A stretch of DNA of 19,946 nucleotides, taken from contig JBOGRD010000004.1 of assembly GCA_050749405.1 (NCBI GenBank), positions 30,001-49,946 of the forward strand, in the 5' to 3' direction. Of this stretch, positions 7,746 through 17,946 are shown in pieces. Below the pieces are notes generated by a model. The model saw only the letters and a list, made by a program, of their open reading frames with translations. It did no database searches and had not been told where the DNA came from. The first letter of the stretch is position 1; each line of letters opens with the position of its first letter. The position numbers and the translations under genes were made by a program. Source of the stretch: Nitrosotalea sp. GTDB taxonomy: Archaea; Thermoproteota; Nitrososphaeria; Nitrososphaerales; Nitrosopumilaceae.

Positions 7746-10121
7746 ATGAAAGAATTTGGAACATTGGAGTATGTCTTGGATACATACTCAAAAAACTGGA
7801 CTTGGAAGCTGACTGGCTCTAGAGCTGTTAGCATGGTTGCCCGAGTTATCCCCCAAGCTTGGTATGGCGACGGCCCGGAGGAAGCAATAGTACCCGACAC
7901 AGAACACAATGTTCAGAAAATCAAATGGATAATGGAAACTTATCCCCTTGAGATAAAATCTAGAAACATTTGGCAGAGAAAGACAAGGCATATGAAAGTA
8001 TCAAAAATAAAATGGACTAGAATAGAAAAGTTGCGAAAAGCAAATCCCGGGGAACAGTTCAGAGGAACTCTGCTTAATTTTCAAAGAGAGGGGTTGGATT
8101 TTCTGCTAAAATCTTCCGGCAATGCTCTTTTGGCAGACGAGATGGGATTGGGCAAGTGCCTAAAGTCTGATTCTCTAATTAGTACCACGAATGGGCATGT
8201 TACAATAAAAGATATTTGGGAACAATCTACAATAACTGAAAAAAACAATGATGAAGAGTGGGGCAAATTAAAAACTCCTATCAACATACAAACGTTTAAT
8301 GGAAAACAGTTAGTTGTCAAACAAGTAAACAGAGTTTTTAGGCAGAAAATTGACGAACAAATTACAAGGATCACTCTTTCTGATGGACTATCAATAGAAT
8401 GCACCAAGCGCCACATGTTTCTCACGCCCAATGGTTGGAAGATGGCTGGAAAATTAAACATGGATGACAAGGTAGCAATTCCTTCAAAGACCATGCATAT
8501 AGAAAAAAAATCATTATCACAAGATGTGGCTGAATTAGTTGCTTGGCAGAGTGCAGAGGCTAGAATATCATTACGTTCTCTAAATCAGTACACACCATAC
8601 AAGCATACACAAGGTACGAGCAAACAACTAGCACTTTGTGTTTCAGACAAACTAGAGACATTTCATGAACTTTCTGAACAATTGCAAGCGATATCAATGA
8701 AATCGATTAATTGGTGTTTGATCAAATCCATAGAAAGAAAACAATTTTGTGGATATGTATACGATTTATCAGTGCCTGAGACACATAATTATATTGCTAA
8801 TGGCATCATTACCCACAATACAGTTCAGACCCTAGCATACCTTGCAACGGAAAGACAGACGTTTCCAGCTCTAATTGTTGCGCCTCTTGTAACCCTGAGC
8901 AATTGGCAAAGAGAGATTCAAAAATTTCTCAAAAGAAGAAGTAGAAATGGAAGAATAGTTGAAGGCGAGTATCCGACATCAGTTTTAATCCGAACTGGCA
9001 AATCTCAGGAAATAGACAAGCATGATATTTATATCATAAATTATGATCTGCTATACAAAAGGTTAGATGATCTTTCAAAACTAAACATAAAGACACTGGT
9101 ATGTGATGAGGTACAACACCTTCGTTCAAAATCAACCAAGAAGTACTCCGCAGTAAAGAAACTTGCCGCACTCGAGTCTGTAAAGTACAGAATTGGATTG
9201 TCTGGCACTCCAATCTATAACAGAGGATCTGAGATTTGGCCCATAGTGGATATACTCAAACCAGGACTACTTGGAAGTTTTGATGAATTTTGTGAGTATT
9301 TCTGTTATGTAAACGAGAAGGGCAAGGCAATAGTCCTTGAAAATAAACGAGTTAGCCTGGGCGAAGAGCTAAGAAAACATGTAATGCTAAGACGCAAAAA
9401 GTCAGATGTACTAAAAGAGTTGAAAGAAAAAGTAAGATACAAAGAACTTATCGAGTCAGACATCAACTATTATCATGCTGAACTTGACAAAATATGGAAG
9501 CGCTTAGAAGAAGAACAGAAGACTGCGACCTCAGCCTTTGACAAGTTTGCATCATATAAAAGAGCCATACAGAGCGAGAGGCAGGCGGCAGGAGCTGCAA
9601 AAGTACCCCACGTCATAGAGTTTGTCAGAAATATTATGGAGATTGAGGAAAGTGTCGTGGTGTTTTGTCATCACAAGGCAATTCACGGATTGTTGCACAA
9701 GAGTCTTCATGAATATTCCCCGTCTTCCATCATAGGAGGCCAGACAGACAAAGACAGACAAGATAACATCGATAGATTCCAAAAGGGTGAAACAAAGCTA
9801 ATGATTGCAGGACTCAGGGCTGGCAATGTTGGAATTAATCTCAGCAGGGCAAGATATGTAATATTTGCAGAGCTTGATTGGAGTCCTGCCATTCACAGAC
9901 AAGCTGAAGATAGGCTGCACCGGATAGGCCAGAAAAATACGGTATTTGCATACTATTTGATGGGTAATGGAACATTAGATGACCACGTAGCAAATGTATT
10001 AGTTGACAAGAGTTATGAGATCGATGCCATCATGGACGAAAAAGAAGAGTCCTTTGAAGACAAGGACAAGGCTGAATTAATCTTGGCTCAAATTCATGAC
10101 AAACTATCAACTAAGCGCTAG
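7746..10121 (+). CDS. SNF2-family (Rad54/Swi2-like) DNA-dependent ATPase/helicase, intein-containing precursor (791 aa; 570 aa after predicted splicing)
   Basis: LLNFQREGLDFLL (Q-motif-like region). Motif I DEMGLGK|..|TVQTLAYL is split by the insert. Motif II DEVQH lies at 9105-9119. Motif III LSGTPIYN. The helicase-C motifs read LMIAGLRAGNVGINL and DWSPAIHRQAEDRLHRIGQ. Confidence 0.95.
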   Translation: MKEFGTLEYVLDTYSKNWTWKLTGSRAVSMVARVIPQAWYGDGPEEAIVPDTEHNVQKIKWIMETYPLEIKSRNIWQRKTRHMKVSKIKWTRIEKLRKANPGEQFRGTLLNFQREGLDFLLKSSGNALLADEMGLGKCLKSDSLISTTNGHVTIKDIWEQSTITEKNNDEEWGKLKTPINIQTFNGKQLVVKQVNRVFRQKIDEQITRITLSDGLSIECTKRHMFLTPNGWKMAGKLNMDDKVAIPSKTMHIEKKSLSQDVAELVAWQSAEARISLRSLNQYTPYKHTQGTSKQLALCVSDKLETFHELSEQLQAISMKSINWCLIKSIERKQFCGYVYDLSVPETHNYIANGIITHNTVQTLAYLATERQTFPALIVAPLVTLSNWQREIQKFLKRRSRNGRIVEGEYPTSVLIRTGKSQEIDKHDIYIINYDLLYKRLDDLSKLNIKTLVCDEVQHLRSKSTKKYSAVKKLAALESVKYRIGLSGTPIYNRGSEIWPIVDILKPGLLGSFDEFCEYFCYVNEKGKAIVLENKRVSLGEELRKHVMLRRKKSDVLKELKEKVRYKELIESDINYYHAELDKIWKRLEEEQKTATSAFDKFASYKRAIQSERQAAGAAKVPHVIEFVRNIMEIEESVVVFCHHKAIHGLLHKSLHEYSPSSIIGGQTDKDRQDNIDRFQKGETKLMIAGLRAGNVGINLSRARYVIFAELDWSPAIHRQAEDRLHRIGQKNTVFAYYLMGNGTLDDHVANVLVDKSYEIDAIMDEKEESFEDKDKAELILAQIHDKLSTKR
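8157..8819 (+). mobile_element. Intein (221 codons) inserted in the Walker-A GLGK|T of the SNF2 helicase
   Basis: The insert starts with Cys (tgc 8157-8159) and ends His-Asn (cac aat 8814-8819), followed by Thr +1 (aca 8820-8822). Block A is CLKSDSLISTTNG, block B GLSIECTKRHMFLT (T-x-x-H), block F GYVYDLSVPETHNYIANG, and block G IITHN|T. Removing it restores DEMGLGKTVQTLAYL. Confidence 0.9.
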
Positions 10122-10338: not shown

Positions 10339-11073
10339 TTATCGCAACTTTTTTGCCTGCTTGATGCACTTGTCACCCTCATTTTTCCTTCCTAGTTTGA
10401 GCAATAGGCTTCCCTTGTTATACCAAGCATTTGCAAAACCCGGATCAAGACTTGTTGCTTTATCAAATGATTCCAATGCTTTATCATATATTTTCAGATT
10501 GTAGAGACAGACACCGTTAAGATTCCATACTGCTGCATGTTCTGGATTGAGCATTATTGCCTTGCCAAAGGACTCCAACGCTTCATCATATCGCCCCAAG
10601 TCAGAGAGGCATACGCCCTTTAGGTTCCACGCACCAGATGATTTTGAATCAATTTCCAATACTTTGTCATAGCATACTAGTGCCTCCTCATATCTTTTCA
10701 AATTAGAAAAACAGTCTCCCTTCTTGAGCCACGCATTTGCATATCGTGGTAACTGACTGGTCGCCTTGTCATAGCATGCAATTGCCTCATCATACTTGCG
10801 TTTGGCAAAAAACGCTTCAGCTTGGACGTACCATGAAACAGCATCTTCCGGATAAAAGTCAGCAAATTTTTTGTTGGACATTACCATAACTTTGTGATGA
10901 TTTAGCAAGATTTTGTATGCATCTATGATTAGTTTGAATTGCTTGTCGTCTTTTTCTGACGAATTTTTATCAGGGTGATGCTTGAGGGCCAATTTTCGAT
11001 ATGCACTTTTTATCTCTTTTAGTGATGAGTCTGGCGTCACGCCCAAAATTTCATAACATTTGGAGAGATTCAA
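10339..11073 (-). CDS. J-domain protein with five C-terminal TPR repeats
   Basis: 244 aa with a TTG start. The J-domain reads [32 protein letters not shown] (HPD motif). Five 34-residue TPR units follow, each with the W-x2-G....Y-x-x-A pattern ([15 protein letters not shown]; [15 protein letters not shown]; [15 protein letters not shown]; [15 protein letters not shown]; [10 protein letters not shown]). Confidence 0.9.
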
Positions 11074-12218: not shown

Positions 12219-12512
12219 ACCTAAAAAAACAAACATCTCAAGGGCCTGACAATACGGAATTGTTTTCTGTCGAGTTTGTTTCATTTGTATATTCTATTGC
12301 ATTATTTCCATCTGCAATGCCACCAGAATAAAGAAGATATGCTGCAGACATGCGTGCTTGTACAAGGGTTAATTGTTGTCGGACATTGTCAGATACGTAG
12401 CTTTGCACTGACTGGACAATCAGGAGACGGAAACCTTGAATTGTTGGTCAACACTCGCTCTGTGCATGAATGCATTCTTTGAGATGCGAACCAAGATTCG
12501 TATTGTGGTACC

Positions 12513-12788
12513 ATGAAACGCGGATACGGTATCTTGATAACCGGCACAGGAATGTTTGTTATTGGTCGTTTTCTTTCACAATGGATAGTAAACAACATAC
12601 CTACAATCAATCAGGCCCATTCGTCTATGATGATGGATGCACAATATCACATGTTATCGTGGAGCAGTCAACTATCCACAATCAGCCAGTGGGGAATAAT
12701 TGTTCTTGTCATAGGAGGGTTTGTAACTGTCTTTGACAGAATGAAAAAAATCAAACAAGATAAAAGATCTACAAGGCATGGAATCTAG
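12513..12788 (+). CDS. Hypothetical two-TM membrane protein (91 aa)
   Basis: ATG start. Two hydrophobic segments (YGILITGTGMFVIGRFL and WGIIVLVIGGFVTVF) and a basic tail KKIKQDKRSTRHG. It is the most protein-like of four mutually overlapping ORFs in 12276..12788. Confidence 0.4.
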   Translation: MKRGYGILITGTGMFVIGRFLSQWIVNNIPTINQAHSSMMMDAQYHMLSWSSQLSTISQWGIIVLVIGGFVTVFDRMKKIKQDKRSTRHGI

Positions 12789-12904
12789 GCACAATACATA
12801 TGCCATAACTATACTAACAATCACACATTAGAAAATAATTTCATGATTTATTGAATTAAGATAAAACAATCTTACTATGAATTAATATCGCAAACAAGTG
12901 TTTT

Positions 12905-13918
12905 TCAATGCTCTTGTACAAATAAGTTCAATGATTCTTTGAGTCCCTTGTACCTGTTTCGTATTGTGACCTCGGTCACGCCCGCAGCCATAGCAATTAC
13001 TTTTTGAGTTGTACTGTCTCCATTTACGGTACACGATAGATACAGTGCAGCAGCAGCAAGTCCCATAGGGTCTTTTCCTGCTGAAAGTTCCATGTCGTTT
13101 GCTTCCTTCAAAATCTCAAGTGCTCTTCGCTTTACCTTCTCGCTTAATCCTGCTTGACTTGCAATCCTTGACATGCATTTTATTGGATCAAGTACCGGCA
13201 TTGTCATGTCAAGCTCTTCTAGTAACAACCTGTAAGATCGTGATATGTCCTTTCTTTTTATATTGATTTGGCGTGCAATCTCGTTTAATGTCCTCGGAGT
13301 GCTAGATTCTCTACATGCCATGTATAATGCAGCCGCAATAAGACCAGAGATTGACCTACCCTTTGTGAGTCCCCTTTCCAGCCCCTTTCTGTAAATGTAT
13401 GCAGTCTTTTCAATTACTGCGTCAGAGAGGGCAAGCTTGTCCCTAAGTCTGTTGAGTTCACTGAAAGCTTGTCTCAAGTTCTTGTCGGCTGATTCACTAG
13501 CCTTACTTCTATTATCCCATGTCCTGAGACGATCCATAGTATGTTTCATTGAGGAAGAAAGCGGTTTTCCCATTGCATCTGTTCTACCATGCCCTATCAT
13601 AGTGGCAAGCCCCATGTCATGCACTGCAAGCGATGTAGGCAGTCCTGTTCTTGCTCTATCGTCATATTCTTCCTTTGTAAATGCGCGCGTCTCAGAACCC
13701 AAGTCTACGATACGATCAGGTATAACAAAGCCGCAACCACTACAAAATTTTTCTCCAGTCGAACTGTCTGTTACGAGTAAATCCTTTCCACATCGCATAC
13801 ATCCACCAGCATTATAATTATGTAAAACCATGCAATTTGTCATCTGCATTGCATGACATATCAATAAGAACTCTCGTATTTCATAATGTGTACAATTCAA
13901 CATGCTTAATAGCGACAT
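12905..13918 (-). CDS. tfb: Transcription initiation factor IIB (TFB)
   Basis: N-terminal zinc ribbon C-MR-C ... C-SG-C (GGCMRCGKDLLVTDSSTGEKFCSGCGFVI), a B-reader/linker, and two cyclin-fold repeats (..GRSISGLIAAALYMACRE.. and ..GKDPMGLAAAALYLSC..). The start is uncertain: five Met codons precede the ribbon, and the longest form adds about 40 atypical residues. Confidence 0.93.
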   Translation of the reverse strand: MSLLSMLNCTHYEIREFLLICHAMQMTNCMVLHNYNAGGCMRCGKDLLVTDSSTGEKFCSGCGFVIPDRIVDLGSETRAFTKEEYDDRARTGLPTSLAVHDMGLATMIGHGRTDAMGKPLSSSMKHTMDRLRTWDNRSKASESADKNLRQAFSELNRLRDKLALSDAVIEKTAYIYRKGLERGLTKGRSISGLIAAALYMACRESSTPRTLNEIARQINIKRKDISRSYRLLLEELDMTMPVLDPIKCMSRIASQAGLSEKVKRRALEILKEANDMELSAGKDPMGLAAAALYLSCTVNGDSTTQKVIAMAAGVTEVTIRNRYKGLKESLNLFVQEH

Positions 13919-13933
13919 AAGTTCTCAAATGAT

Positions 13934-13993
13934 ATGGCAAAAGCCAAATCAAAAGCAAAATCGAAATCAAAATCTGCAAAGAAAAAAAGATAA
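13934..13993 (+). repeat. Imperfect hexanucleotide tandem repeat ((g/t)cNaaa x6, 13937-13972) that is codon-aligned with a 19-codon Lys-rich micro-ORF
   Basis: The repeat reads gcaaaa gccaaa tcaaaa gcaaaa tcgaaa tcaaaa. Read from ATG 13934 it gives MAKAKSKAKSKSKSAKKKR followed by a stop (TAA 13991-13993). It lies 16 nt from the longest tfb start, on the opposite strand. Confidence 0.5.
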
Positions 13994-16065: not shown

Positions 16066-16229
16066 ATCTAAAATCTACCATTTTTTTCATTTCAGACTAA
16101 ATTATAGCATAATTTTTGCATCAGGCAGGTTTGTAGGCTATGAGAAGAAAATGCTCTTCTTGCAAGAATAGGCGTTGGTTTTCTGAATTAAAACCAGTCA
16201 ATGACAAGTCTTAAGTCATCACAGAATAC

Positions 16230-16379
16230 ATGGTAAAAGAAATGGGCGAGGAACCGTGCTTGGAATGTTCGTCCAAGAATACCTGCGAATACATGAACCC
16301 AATTGAGAAGAGCGACGGAATGCATTATTATTTTTTATGCGAAGATTGCAAGCATGAATGGGAAATAATAAGAAAATAA
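16230..16379 (+). CDS. 49-aa zinc-ribbon mini-protein
   Basis: ATG 16230 to TAA 16377-16379. Product MVKEMGEEPCLECSSKNTCEYMNPIEKSDGMHYYFLCEDCKHEWEIIRK has C-x2-C ... C-x2-C. It is below the ORF-track cutoff. The antisense 60-aa ORF 16219..16401 looks like a shadow. Confidence 0.5.
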   Translation: MVKEMGEEPCLECSSKNTCEYMNPIEKSDGMHYYFLCEDCKHEWEIIRK

Positions 16380-16547
16380 GGAAATTAGAATAGTATTCCA
16401 AATAGCTACACCGATGACATTTCGCAGGAGCTCAGACGGGATAATTCTGCAAATGATGTCTTTGTTTTACAAAATGGGATTAATCTGTTTAATGGCAAGT
16501 GGAAACAGAGAGGATTTGGGAAACTATCAGGCAAGGATATTGAGCAT

Positions 16548-16796
16548 TTGGAGACCTTTGAGAAGAATGGAAAATTATTTTATAAAATCAAGGTATTGAG
16601 AAATTCTAGACTTAGAACTTCAATAATTCAGAATCAGTTATCTGAGATAGGGAAGATCAAGGAAGTTGTGAAGCAGTTTAATCTTAATGCCGATAGAAAG
16701 AGATTATGGTTAGGAAGGATTGAAAGTATTGATTCTAAAGTTATGAATGAGTCTATGCCTATATCGTTAAATCATTTAAAAAAAGATGAGATATAG
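16548..16796 (+). CDS. Hypothetical protein; the reading frame is open upstream to 16389 without any ATG/GTG/TTG
   Basis: The track start is TTG 16548. The same frame continues upstream as NSIPNSYTDDISQELRRDNSANDVFVLQNGINLFNGKWKQRGFGKLSGKDIEH, which looks as protein-like as the called part. The 3' end overlaps the next ORF by 11 nt. Confidence 0.4.
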   Translation: METFEKNGKLFYKIKVLRNSRLRTSIIQNQLSEIGKIKEVVKQFNLNADRKRLWLGRIESIDSKVMNESMPISLNHLKKDEI

Positions 16797-17524
16797 AATG
16801 GATGATGCATTGATTGGTGCAATTATCGGAGGAGGTATATCTGGCGCTGTTGGTATAATTATTGCACGATACACAAGTAGGCTCAAAGATAAAGAATTGA
16901 TGAAACAAAACACATACACCAGACTTTATGATTGGATTACGTCTAGAGAAGCCAATTTTCAATTTACTGATGACCAAGTTTATGCAATTCAAACAAAATT
17001 GCAAATTACTTCCTCGGAATATATCAAGATGGATAAGAAAATCAGGAAAAAGTTTGACATGTTTGTTGATGAGGGAGCAAAATGGGACAATATGTTCAGT
17101 ACAATCAACCAAAGATTTTCTGACGAGAGGACTAAGATCTTTGGAAATCTATGTAGCGATTTAAAAGATTCAAACATTCTAAATGATCGAGGTTATATAG
17201 AAATAGGAAATGCGGGAGGGTATTCAATGCGTAATTTTCTGGATCCTTTTTTCACTATACTAATAAATCCAGCAGTCAACAGCGGCCATATTCTTTATCA
17301 AAAAATGAAAGAATACGCAATGAAAAAAAAATCTTCACCAACTTGAATATCTTGAAGAAATTAAGAAGGAAAGACCACAATTTTTTGAACTGATAAATAA
17401 AAATCTACCAGAATTTAGAAACCTTGTACTATCAGGCGTAAACTATGATATTCTGATGGCTCAAGGTGAAAGGGCACGTGATAAGCTCCGTGATCTCATG
17501 AATGTATTGCAGGATAATTTGTGA
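16786..17524 (+). pseudogene. Glycine-zipper-like TM-anchored protein split by a frameshift at an A9 tract (ORF 16786..17346 plus a +1-frame continuation 17324..17524)
   Basis: ORF A ends ..YQKMKEYAMKKKSSPT and then stops. The +1 frame reads KKNLHQLEYLEEIKKERPQFFELINKNLPEFRNLVLSGVNYDILMAQGERARDKLRDLMNVLQDNL to a TGA at 17522-17524, open across the A9 run (17323-17331). Deleting one A gives a seamless product of about 245 aa. The N-terminal TM segment is LIGAIIGGGISGAVGIIIA. Confidence 0.55.
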
Positions 17525-17602
17525 ATTTTACATTTTAAATTCTCTACAAATCATACATATTCATTAAATTACTTTAAGAAATAGCAAATCCAGAACAAAC
17601 CA

Positions 17603-17872
17603 TTGGTCAATGAGAAAAGAATCGCGGTGATTCACATATTTCACACGACGGCAGTTACTATAGGAGCTGTATTATTAGCCATTGGGATCTTATTCTATTC
17701 ACTTGAATTTGAATGGATTCAGGCAGCACTATCTGTTATGCCAGAGTCTCAAGTGCTGAAAGAAGATACTGGAGAATTAATATTTTCTAGTTGGTTTTAT
17801 GGAGGTATTGGCGGGATAGTAATTTTCATTTCAACATTAATTTCTACTATGTTGATCAGAAAAACCAAGTAA
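17603..17872 (+). CDS. Hypothetical two-TM small membrane protein (89 aa)
   Basis: TTG start. Hydrophobic segments AVTIGAVLLAIGILFYSL and YGGIGGIVIFISTLISTMLI. Confidence 0.45.
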   Translation: MVNEKRIAVIHIFHTTAVTIGAVLLAIGILFYSLEFEWIQAALSVMPESQVLKEDTGELIFSSWFYGGIGGIVIFISTLISTMLIRKTK

Positions 17873-17946
17873 TTTCCAACAAATCATAACTTCCGTTATT
17901 ATCTAGTAGCTTCAATTTTCGTGCCTAGGGGAGGGGCTTACTCTTT

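Follow-up and report, generated by a model that had tools for sequence, protein, structure and literature searches.

Inteins cluster in the P-loops of nucleoside triphosphatases (NTPases), as described in the survey by Novikova et al. (2016; PMC4760082), which also lists 15 bacterial inteins in SNF2/HepA (COG0553) hosts from Actinobacteria, Bacteroidetes, Cyanobacteria, Deinococcus-Thermus and Verrucomicrobia, and whose top 15 of archaeal intein hosts do not include SNF2. Loss of the homing endonuclease to yield a mini-intein is already known (review PMC7765530), and class-3 inteins are defined by the lack of an N-terminal nucleophile, with a branched intermediate formed at block F (PMC3196547, PMC2807308). 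The present analysis concerns a stretch of 19,946 nucleotides (nt) from the ammonia-oxidizing archaeon Nitrosotalea sp. (contig JBOGRD010000004.1, positions 30,001 to 49,946; hereafter the window), in which an uninterrupted open reading frame (ORF) of 791 codons plus stop encodes the precursor of a SNF2-family helicase whose Walker A motif is divided by an in-frame insert. An initial annotation of the DNA had called this insert an intein. The results given below support, with high confidence, an account in which a class-1 mini-intein occupies the GLGK/T site of a SNF2 ATPase, descends from a homing intein, has been inherited vertically and has been kept competent to splice.

An insert dividing motif I of a SNF2-family helicase

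The precursor translation reads ...NALLADEMGLGK/CLKSDSLIST...YIANGIITHN/TVQTLAYLATER (slashes mark the insert boundaries), and removal of residues 138-358 in silico leaves a product of 570 amino acids (aa) in which GLGK is joined to T, restoring motif I/Walker A. This product matches PF00176 SNF2-rel_dom (143.8 bits) and PF00271 Helicase_C (59.4 bits); relative to the precursor the SNF2-rel_dom score rises from 130 to 144 bits and the match becomes compact (residues 112-375), while the Helicase_C score stays the same. Both lobes of the SNF2 ATPase family and motifs I, II, III, V and VI are all found in the spliced extein (Table 1), and the solved structure to which it is most closely related is that of the Sulfolobus SNF2/Rad54 ATPase, 1z63 (E=7e-47, residues 118-534). 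Named relatives of the helicase come from Nitrosotalea and other Nitrosopumilaceae. An identical 791-aa protein is present on a 209-kb NCBI contig (CCXHPL010000004.1, assembly GCA_973421715.1). A near-identical protein is called by NCBI as MGI0087537.1 ('SNF2-related protein [Nitrosotalea sp.]'), a 709-aa product that is 82 residues shorter at the N-terminus and whose name makes no mention of the intein; the MKEFGTLEYV start at 7746, which bears on the segment 7746-7991 omitted from that call, is common to all orthologues. For annotation, the predicted mature product is a 570-aa helicase and not a 791-aa protein.

When analyzed alone, the insert matches, far above chance, Pfam Intein_splicing PF14890 with 89.2 bits (E=3e-25; cut-off 35.8) and the NCBIfam models of the N-terminal (TIGR01445, 41.8 bits; cut-off 24.5) and C-terminal (TIGR01443, 43.8 bits; cut-off 15.6) splicing regions, and the aIF2 intein model NF011418 matches its residues 1-121 (E=1.8e-22). 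The catalytic set is complete, comprising Cys1, T83-x-x-H86, block-F D203 and H210, H220-N221 and Thr+1, and blocks F and G end in GYVYDLSVPETHNYIANGIITHN/T, as is characteristic of the C-terminus in class 1. The signature of class-3 inteins (no N-terminal nucleophile, a block-F Cys, WCT) is absent from the insert, in which block F is VYDLSVPETHNY and the signature position is not occupied by Cys; because Cys1 and the canonical class-1 blocks are present, the insert is not class-3, and by sequence it is classified as a class-1 (canonical) intein. Its G+C content of 0.375-0.39 is the same as that of its surroundings. The initial annotation had placed the insert at these same positions, had recognized that GLGKT exists only once the insert is removed, and had listed Cys1, TKRH, blocks F and G, His-Asn and Thr+1 as its splicing signature; its coordinates prove exact to the base, and every element of the signature was located. 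The checks that it had proposed came out in its favour, with matches to intein hidden Markov models (HMMs) above cut-off, a spliced product that forms a complete SNF2-rel_dom and Helicase_C protein, and syntenic intein-free alleles (described below).

To represent the folded intein an AlphaFold2 model was built from an alignment of 21 family members. Confidence is high for the two halves of the HINT domain, residues 1-110 and ~182-215 (predicted local distance difference test score, pLDDT, of 84-95), and lower for the final residues. When the model was compared with the PDB using Foldseek, each of the 50 best matches listed was an intein or a BIL (intein-like HINT) domain, at a probability of 1.00, the best being TvoVMA (4o1s, E=1.4e-10), followed by Pho RadA (4e2t), with PhoCDC21-1 and Ssp DnaB also among the best. 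The Pho RadA intein is reportedly inserted between Lys and Thr with Thr+1. Sequence identity to any solved intein among these matches is below 25%, and the best match to the PDB by sequence is the Ssp DnaB mini-intein 1mi8 (E=1.4e-11). The insert is thus, on its modelled structure, a HINT-fold intein.

Splicing of the precursor is predicted on this basis, and following the standard four-step chemistry of inteins it would begin with an N-S acyl shift at Lys137-Cys138 to give a thioester, which the hydroxyl of Thr359 (Thr+1) would attack to form a branched ester. Cyclization of Asn358, aided by His357 and the block-F Asp and His, would then free a 25-kDa intein, and an O-N shift would create the Lys-Thr peptide bond and with it the intact P-loop GLGKT. 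Binding of ATP/Mg2+ by the unspliced protein should be impossible because the Walker-A Lys and Thr lie 221 residues apart; the precursor is therefore expected to be dead as an ATPase, and only the spliced 570-aa protein would bind and hydrolyse ATP. The initial annotation rightly identified Thr+1 as the Walker-A Thr that completes GLGKT, but described it as catalytic, which is loose wording; the Walker-A Thr coordinates Mg2+. The ligated junction would be contained in the Glu-C peptide MGLGKTVQTLAYLATE, whereas trypsin would cut exactly at the K137/T junction. An antisense ORF of 137 aa (8081-8494, minus strand) overlaps the junction of N-extein and intein; as it matches no known family, it is probably a spurious reading frame.

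Table 1. Features of the helicase gene and its intein; dN/dS (ratio of nonsynonymous to synonymous substitution rates) and dS were calculated by Nei-Gojobori between the window and the intein-bearing related locus L005
Feature	Positions	Strand	Evidence	dN/dS	dS
Precursor gene, SNF2 helicase with intein	7746..10121	+	Single ORF; Pfam SNF2-rel_dom, Intein_splicing, Helicase_C		
N-extein, residues 1-137, closing with the first half of Walker A/SNF2 motif I, LLADEMGLGK (8127-8156)	7746..8156	+		0.029	0.60
Class-1 mini-intein, 221 aa/663 nt, precursor residues 138-358	8157..8819	+	HMMs; AlphaFold2 HINT fold; Foldseek; empty syntenic orthologues	0.139	0.69
HINT-N				0.13	0.67
Block A with Cys1 nucleophile (codon 8157-8159, residue 138)	8157..8195	+	C1 invariant 21/21; TIGR01445 alignment begins at residue 1		
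Block B ECTKRHMFL; T-x-x-H (TKRH) at 8403-8414, preceded by Cys82	8397..8423	+	C82, T83, H86 invariant		
Endonuclease/linker remnant, intein residues 112-181, no confident fold	8490..8699	+	pLDDT <50; aligns to endonuclease flanks of 424/425-aa relatives	0.22	0.58
Deletion scar AWQ/SAE; 606 nt (202 codons) gone: most of block C, all of block E, remaining endonuclease core	8541..8558	+	Alignment, as protein and as DNA, with full-length L093, L096, L097		
HINT-C				0.06	1.03
Blocks F and G, GYVYDLSVPETHNYIANG-IITHN; terminal Asn358 at 8817-8819	8751..8819	+	D203, H210, H220, N221 invariant; TIGR01443	0.06	
C-extein, residues 359-791; Thr+1 (8820-8822) completes GLGKT	8820..10118	+		0.026	0.61
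SNF2 motif II, DEVQH	9096-9122	+			
SNF2 motif III, LSGTPIYN	9198-9221	+			
SNF2 motif V	9819-9845	+			
SNF2 motif VI, WSPAIHRQAEDRLHRIGQ	9879-9932	+			

Empty sites, full-length relatives and endonuclease loss

Searching with the spliced extein recovers 570-aa orthologues that lack the intein and are 98% identical to the extein (P0001-P0006), and Nitrosotalea devaniterrae and N. sinensis have orthologues of 570-572 aa with no insert. At the insertion point the intein-free orthologues read an uninterrupted ADEMGLGKTVQTL (the empty-site sequence being GATGGGATTGGGCAAG/ACAGTCCAGACC) in a matching gene neighbourhood. Three related loci were compared with the window, two of them empty (L002 and L006) and one with an intein (L005); all four share the same gene order, with ABC transporter genes upstream and small ORFs and TFIIB downstream. 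BLASTN alignments of the window to the empty loci are collinear, break at 8155/8156 and resume at 8816/8817, which agrees with the predicted boundaries because the junction is ambiguous by 1-3 nt. A scan of genome contigs by alignment to the extein gives 80 further Nitrosopumilaceae genomes with an uninterrupted gene; these are the best 80 contiguous matches, all of them intein-free, and thus establish a wide distribution of the orthologue, usually without interruption, but do not measure the frequency of the intein. Motif I of the ADEMGLGKTVQTL type is encoded by all 83 of 83 empty alleles, and comparison of the codons flanking the homing site between bearing and empty alleles reveals no clear pattern of immunizing substitutions. 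Since L005, with the intein, and L006, without it, are ~93% identical, gain or precise loss of the intein in this group evidently takes little evolutionary time, to judge from these sequences. A 98%-identical intein-free orthologue on a 1.9-Mb chromosome (L025, OY969559.1, 3001-4711) spans 1711 nt instead of 1710 and looks as though it is split by a single-base indel, which would be either a long-read error or a real frameshift; among the sequences that cluster with the window protein is a 106-aa fragment encoded on a contig of that same length (1,915,938 bp).

When inserts were extracted by alignment to the extein, with no filter for motifs, 29 of the 120 closest orthologue clusters were found to carry one, in every case directly after K137 and with C1, HN and T+1 conserved (29/29); homologous inserts lacking these residues, which in the initial annotation would have spoken against an intein, are thus absent among them. 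An intein placed at this very codon, in the same arrangement, recurs in at least 29 independent protein clusters and in 20 independent metagenome contigs from different studies, with insert sizes of 163-166, 197, 207, 214, 216, 222-226, 234, 270, 274 and 424-425 aa. The 424/425-aa inteins (precursors of 995/996 aa) carry PF14528 LAGLIDADG_3 and two motifs, ...ELMAWQIAEGYEY... and ...FVQAMFDSEGHVG...; PF14528 is not matched in the window protein, which accordingly is not a full-length LAGLIDADG homing intein. The window intein aligns to both ends of these longer forms, with 202 codons missing between AWQ and (I)AE-xGISLRSL, block C being reduced to its first residues (ELVAWQ) and block E deleted. 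In the DNA of L093, the closest full-length relative, an 8-nt direct repeat, ATTGCAGA, stands at both ends of the missing segment; the corresponding repeat is 11 nt long in L097 (AGATTGCAGAA), 5-7 nt are kept in other full-length copies, and the repeat encodes I-A-E. The in-frame deletion in the window would thus have been microhomology-mediated. What is left of the endonuclease region, ~70 residues, is probably a floppy linker according to the model, and because the endonuclease is deleted the window copy is classed as a mini-intein that should no longer be able to home. That the LAGLIDADG endonuclease has been lost is a refinement beyond the initial annotation.

An identical AWQ/xAE junction is shared by the window copy, P0009/L005, P0100/L089, P0111 and P0023. 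When the shared columns were used to build a neighbour-joining tree, these copies fell in four separate clades, the first three each adjoining copies that are full-length or differently deleted. Nucleotide quartets within the window's clade join the deleted L005 to the full-length L093 at 16-24 informative sites, compared with 5-9 for window plus L005; either the deletion therefore recurred or recombination occurred. Support is moderate and the tree is a simple one, so that repeated loss at this direct repeat, or else exchange between alleles by recombination, is likely rather than established. The family's built-in repeat, which encodes I-A-E on both sides of the endonuclease core, appears to have caused an identical in-frame loss of 606 nt more than once, in lineages independent of each other, turning mobile inteins into fixed mini-inteins.

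Selection on the intein and the alternative readings

Nucleotide identity of the window to L002, L005 and L006 is alike, 87-90% across 4.5-11.4 kb. Compared with L005 the exteins are ~90% identical and the intein 83.6%, and as the intein dS is similar to that of the exteins (Table 1) a recent transfer is disfavoured. Recent horizontal transfer was considered as an explanation of the window/L005 pair, and was rejected on the divergence of intein versus extein and on sliding-window identity near the junctions. Intein and extein are both under purifying selection, with extein dN/dS of 0.013-0.019 against intein-free alleles and only slightly higher values between the two intein-bearing lineages. 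Because extein dN/dS is very low in two lineages that carry the intein, the helicase must be functional in both, which needs efficient splicing. Taken together these comparisons point to an element that is long-resident, splicing-competent and immobile. It would have originated as a 424/425-aa LAGLIDADG homing intein of the kind still extant at the same site in related genomes, and would have lost 202 endonuclease codons in frame at the I-A-E repeat in the window lineage; afterwards it would have been inherited vertically, with splicing competence kept by selection on the host helicase, and the excised intein, being without endonuclease, presumably has no further activity.

Several observations weigh against this account. 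Thr+1 is a weaker nucleophile than Cys or Ser, which could make splicing slow or dependent on conditions; no structure is predicted with confidence for residues 112-181, and the folding of some engineered mini-inteins can suffer from a long floppy insert; the dN/dS values for sub-regions rest on 40-111 codons each; and the grouping of L005 with full-length L093 and not with the window (~3:1 in quartets) sits uneasily with vertical descent.

The alternative that survives best would add to the account above and not replace it: the intein could act as a conditional-splicing switch that gates the SNF2 ATPase in response to redox state (through a Cys1-Cys82 disulfide), metal, pH or DNA. Cys82 (8400-8402) stands directly before the block-B TxxH and does not vary among the aligned family members (21/21), the position of the insert in the P-loop would let activity depend strictly on splicing, and even the endonuclease remnant evolves with dN/dS below 1. 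Inteins of P-loops or helicases that respond to stress have been reported before, as in mycobacterial DnaB (PMC6195587, PMC7360933). However, a conserved Cys beside block B may be structural, and the need to splice fully explains the purifying selection. The 98%-identical orthologues, like those of most Nitrosopumilaceae, have no intein, so that no essential regulatory role is implied, and presence or absence is patchy even in relatives as close as L005 and L006. A switch of this kind is accordingly considered improbable. The same low expectation applies to the broader idea that the intein is not simply a parasite in decay but has been retained by some Nitrosotalea lineages to hold the SNF2 ATPase off until splicing is permitted.

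The element could also still be mobile, spreading by means of a trans endonuclease from full-length copies or by ordinary homologous recombination of the flanking extein DNA. Full-length and deleted forms do co-occur in related lineages and are mixed in the intein tree, and the patchiness between ~93%-identical genomes would also be accounted for. However, the inteins of window and L005 are more diverged than their exteins at a similar dS, the opposite of what recent transfer would show; no raised identity (co-conversion tract) is seen beside the junctions in 150-nt sliding windows; no close copy is found in IMG/VR viral contigs (best identity 31%); and, of the two LAGLIDADG motifs, the window copy has lost the second entirely and the first for the most part. 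Continued mobility thus appears quite unlikely. There is even less to recommend an insert that does not splice and is retained in the mature protein, or a helicase gene that has been inactivated, a reading for which the N-terminally shortened NCBI call of a near-identical protein might be adduced: the catalytic residues are all intact and invariant, the frame is open throughout, the P-loop of an unspliced protein would be severed, and the extein dN/dS is incompatible with a pseudogene, which leaves this reading very improbable. An assembly or binning artefact, in which a chimeric contig places a foreign intein in the helicase gene, is imaginable given that the window comes from a metagenome-assembled genome, but with an insert that is in frame and flanked by collinear DNA, and that recurs in the protein clusters and metagenome contigs counted above, its probability is negligible.

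Other features of the window and comparison with known inteins

The gene that follows the helicase downstream (10339-11073, minus strand) is oppositely oriented and codes for a protein with a DnaJ domain and about five TPR repeats. At 12421-12911 the window is missing three genes that L002, L005 and L006 have between a 78-aa ORF and TFIIB (for proteins of 218-219 and 196-213 aa and for a DUF1059 protein, 115-118 aa long), and holds only a 91-aa ORF (12513-12788) with no family match; in the window lineage these genes have been deleted or replaced. Immediately upstream of the minus-strand TFIIB gene, at 13937-13974, is a short tandem repeat that is rich in A and has 2-3 copies with a period of 12/18 nt. 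The region 16390-17900 is variable, with no nucleotide match in L002, L005 or L006; GC skew is unusually strong (0.32-0.33) at 16200-17100, and the ORFs at 16786-17346 and 17603-17872 have no Pfam match. Scans of the window for tRNAs and against Rfam gave no matches.

Wider relatives of the intein were sought with a family profile in a HMMER scan of 1.84 billion representative proteins, in which the thaumarchaeal SNF2 cluster appears as one representative (387 bits), followed by a 1518-aa SNF2 protein (200 bits) and then by a continuum of inteins; the intein alone as query against an index of 5.8 billion proteins gave 2 matches only, the word index being too coarse for this query. Junctions were inspected for 40 of the best 150 profile matches. 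Most of them start after the Walker A GxGK (GxGK/C), and those whose match spans the whole intein end in HN/T or HN/S; the hosts include MCM-like (GDPGVAK/C..HN/SQLL) and aIF2-like (GHVDHGK/C) proteins. The view of P-loops as an intein hot spot, put forward in the initial annotation, agrees with these junctions and with the 2016 survey (PMC4760082). Homologous motif-I K/T inteins in other SNF2 subfamilies occur in P0123, P0174 (DUF3670-SNF2; from Actinoallomurus), P0170 (SNF2_assoc) and P0126 (from a Thermoplasmatota archaeon). SNF2-rel_dom together with Intein_splicing was confirmed in P0123, P0170, P0174, P0126, P0171 and P0185, with LAGLIDADG_3 in addition in all except P0171. More broadly, related LAGLIDADG inteins at the Walker-A K/T site are carried by other SNF2 subfamilies and by unrelated helicases and NTPases (L108, which is Ga0207684_10001004; L110-L112; P0123-P0191), and a contig from a giant-virus metagenome-assembled genome (L112 = L168) is among the carriers. 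Automatic annotation in IMG labels relatives 'intein/homing endonuclease/superfamily II DNA or RNA helicase'. No literature was found among the ranked matches for intein together with Nitrosopumilus, Nitrososphaera, Nitrosotalea or Nitrososphaerota, and the publications pairing intein with Thaumarchaeota do not, by title and abstract, concern this allele.

The element shares with other P-loop inteins (Pho RadA 4e2t/2lqm, MCM-a, RFC-a, DnaB-b and aIF2; PMC4760082) its insertion in the ATP-binding loop, class-1 chemistry and HINT fold, and differs from them in its host, a Nitrosopumilaceae SNF2 helicase, and in its low identity to the solved examples. Bacterial SNF2/HepA inteins have a host in the same superfamily, and the intein-bearing hosts of other SNF2 subfamilies are, unlike the window protein, paralogous SNF2 proteins of 1300-1500 aa whose inteins are ~39% identical or less (L108). 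The initial annotation had mentioned Snf2 inteins from bacteria including Deinococcus; such inteins are indeed listed in the survey (PMC4760082), but that of Deinococcus radiodurans, with its host also in the Snf2 family, is a class-3 intein with a block-F branched intermediate (PMC3196547), and so not of the same kind as the class-1 intein of the window. The host itself resembles the core of the SNF2/Rad54-like ATPase SSO1653 of Sulfolobus solfataricus (1z63/1z6a) in having the full SNF2 motif set, and is distinguished by an N-terminal region of 110 residues with no Pfam match.

Elements of this kind, insertion at sites of this kind, inteins in the SNF2 superfamily and endonuclease loss are all already known, and the window allele leaves the current understanding of inteins unchanged. 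What it adds is modest: a natural deletion series at one site, with deletion apparently recurrent at a short repeat. This one Nitrosopumilaceae SNF2 site is found empty, with a full-length LAGLIDADG intein, and with at least 10 different in-frame deletion derivatives, a series that is usable for study of the homing cycle and of the tolerance of the HINT domain for linkers, and a mesophilic, naturally minimized K/T intein with Thr+1 might have some use as a tool. In this respect the closest comparison is with the Ssp DnaB mini-intein (1mi8) and other mini-inteins, in which likewise a HINT domain is retained, the endonuclease is removed and a residual linker remains. The Ssp DnaB mini-intein was reportedly made by deletion in the laboratory; in contrast, the deletion in the window is natural, leaves ~70 residues in place and can be mapped against full-length relatives that are still extant.

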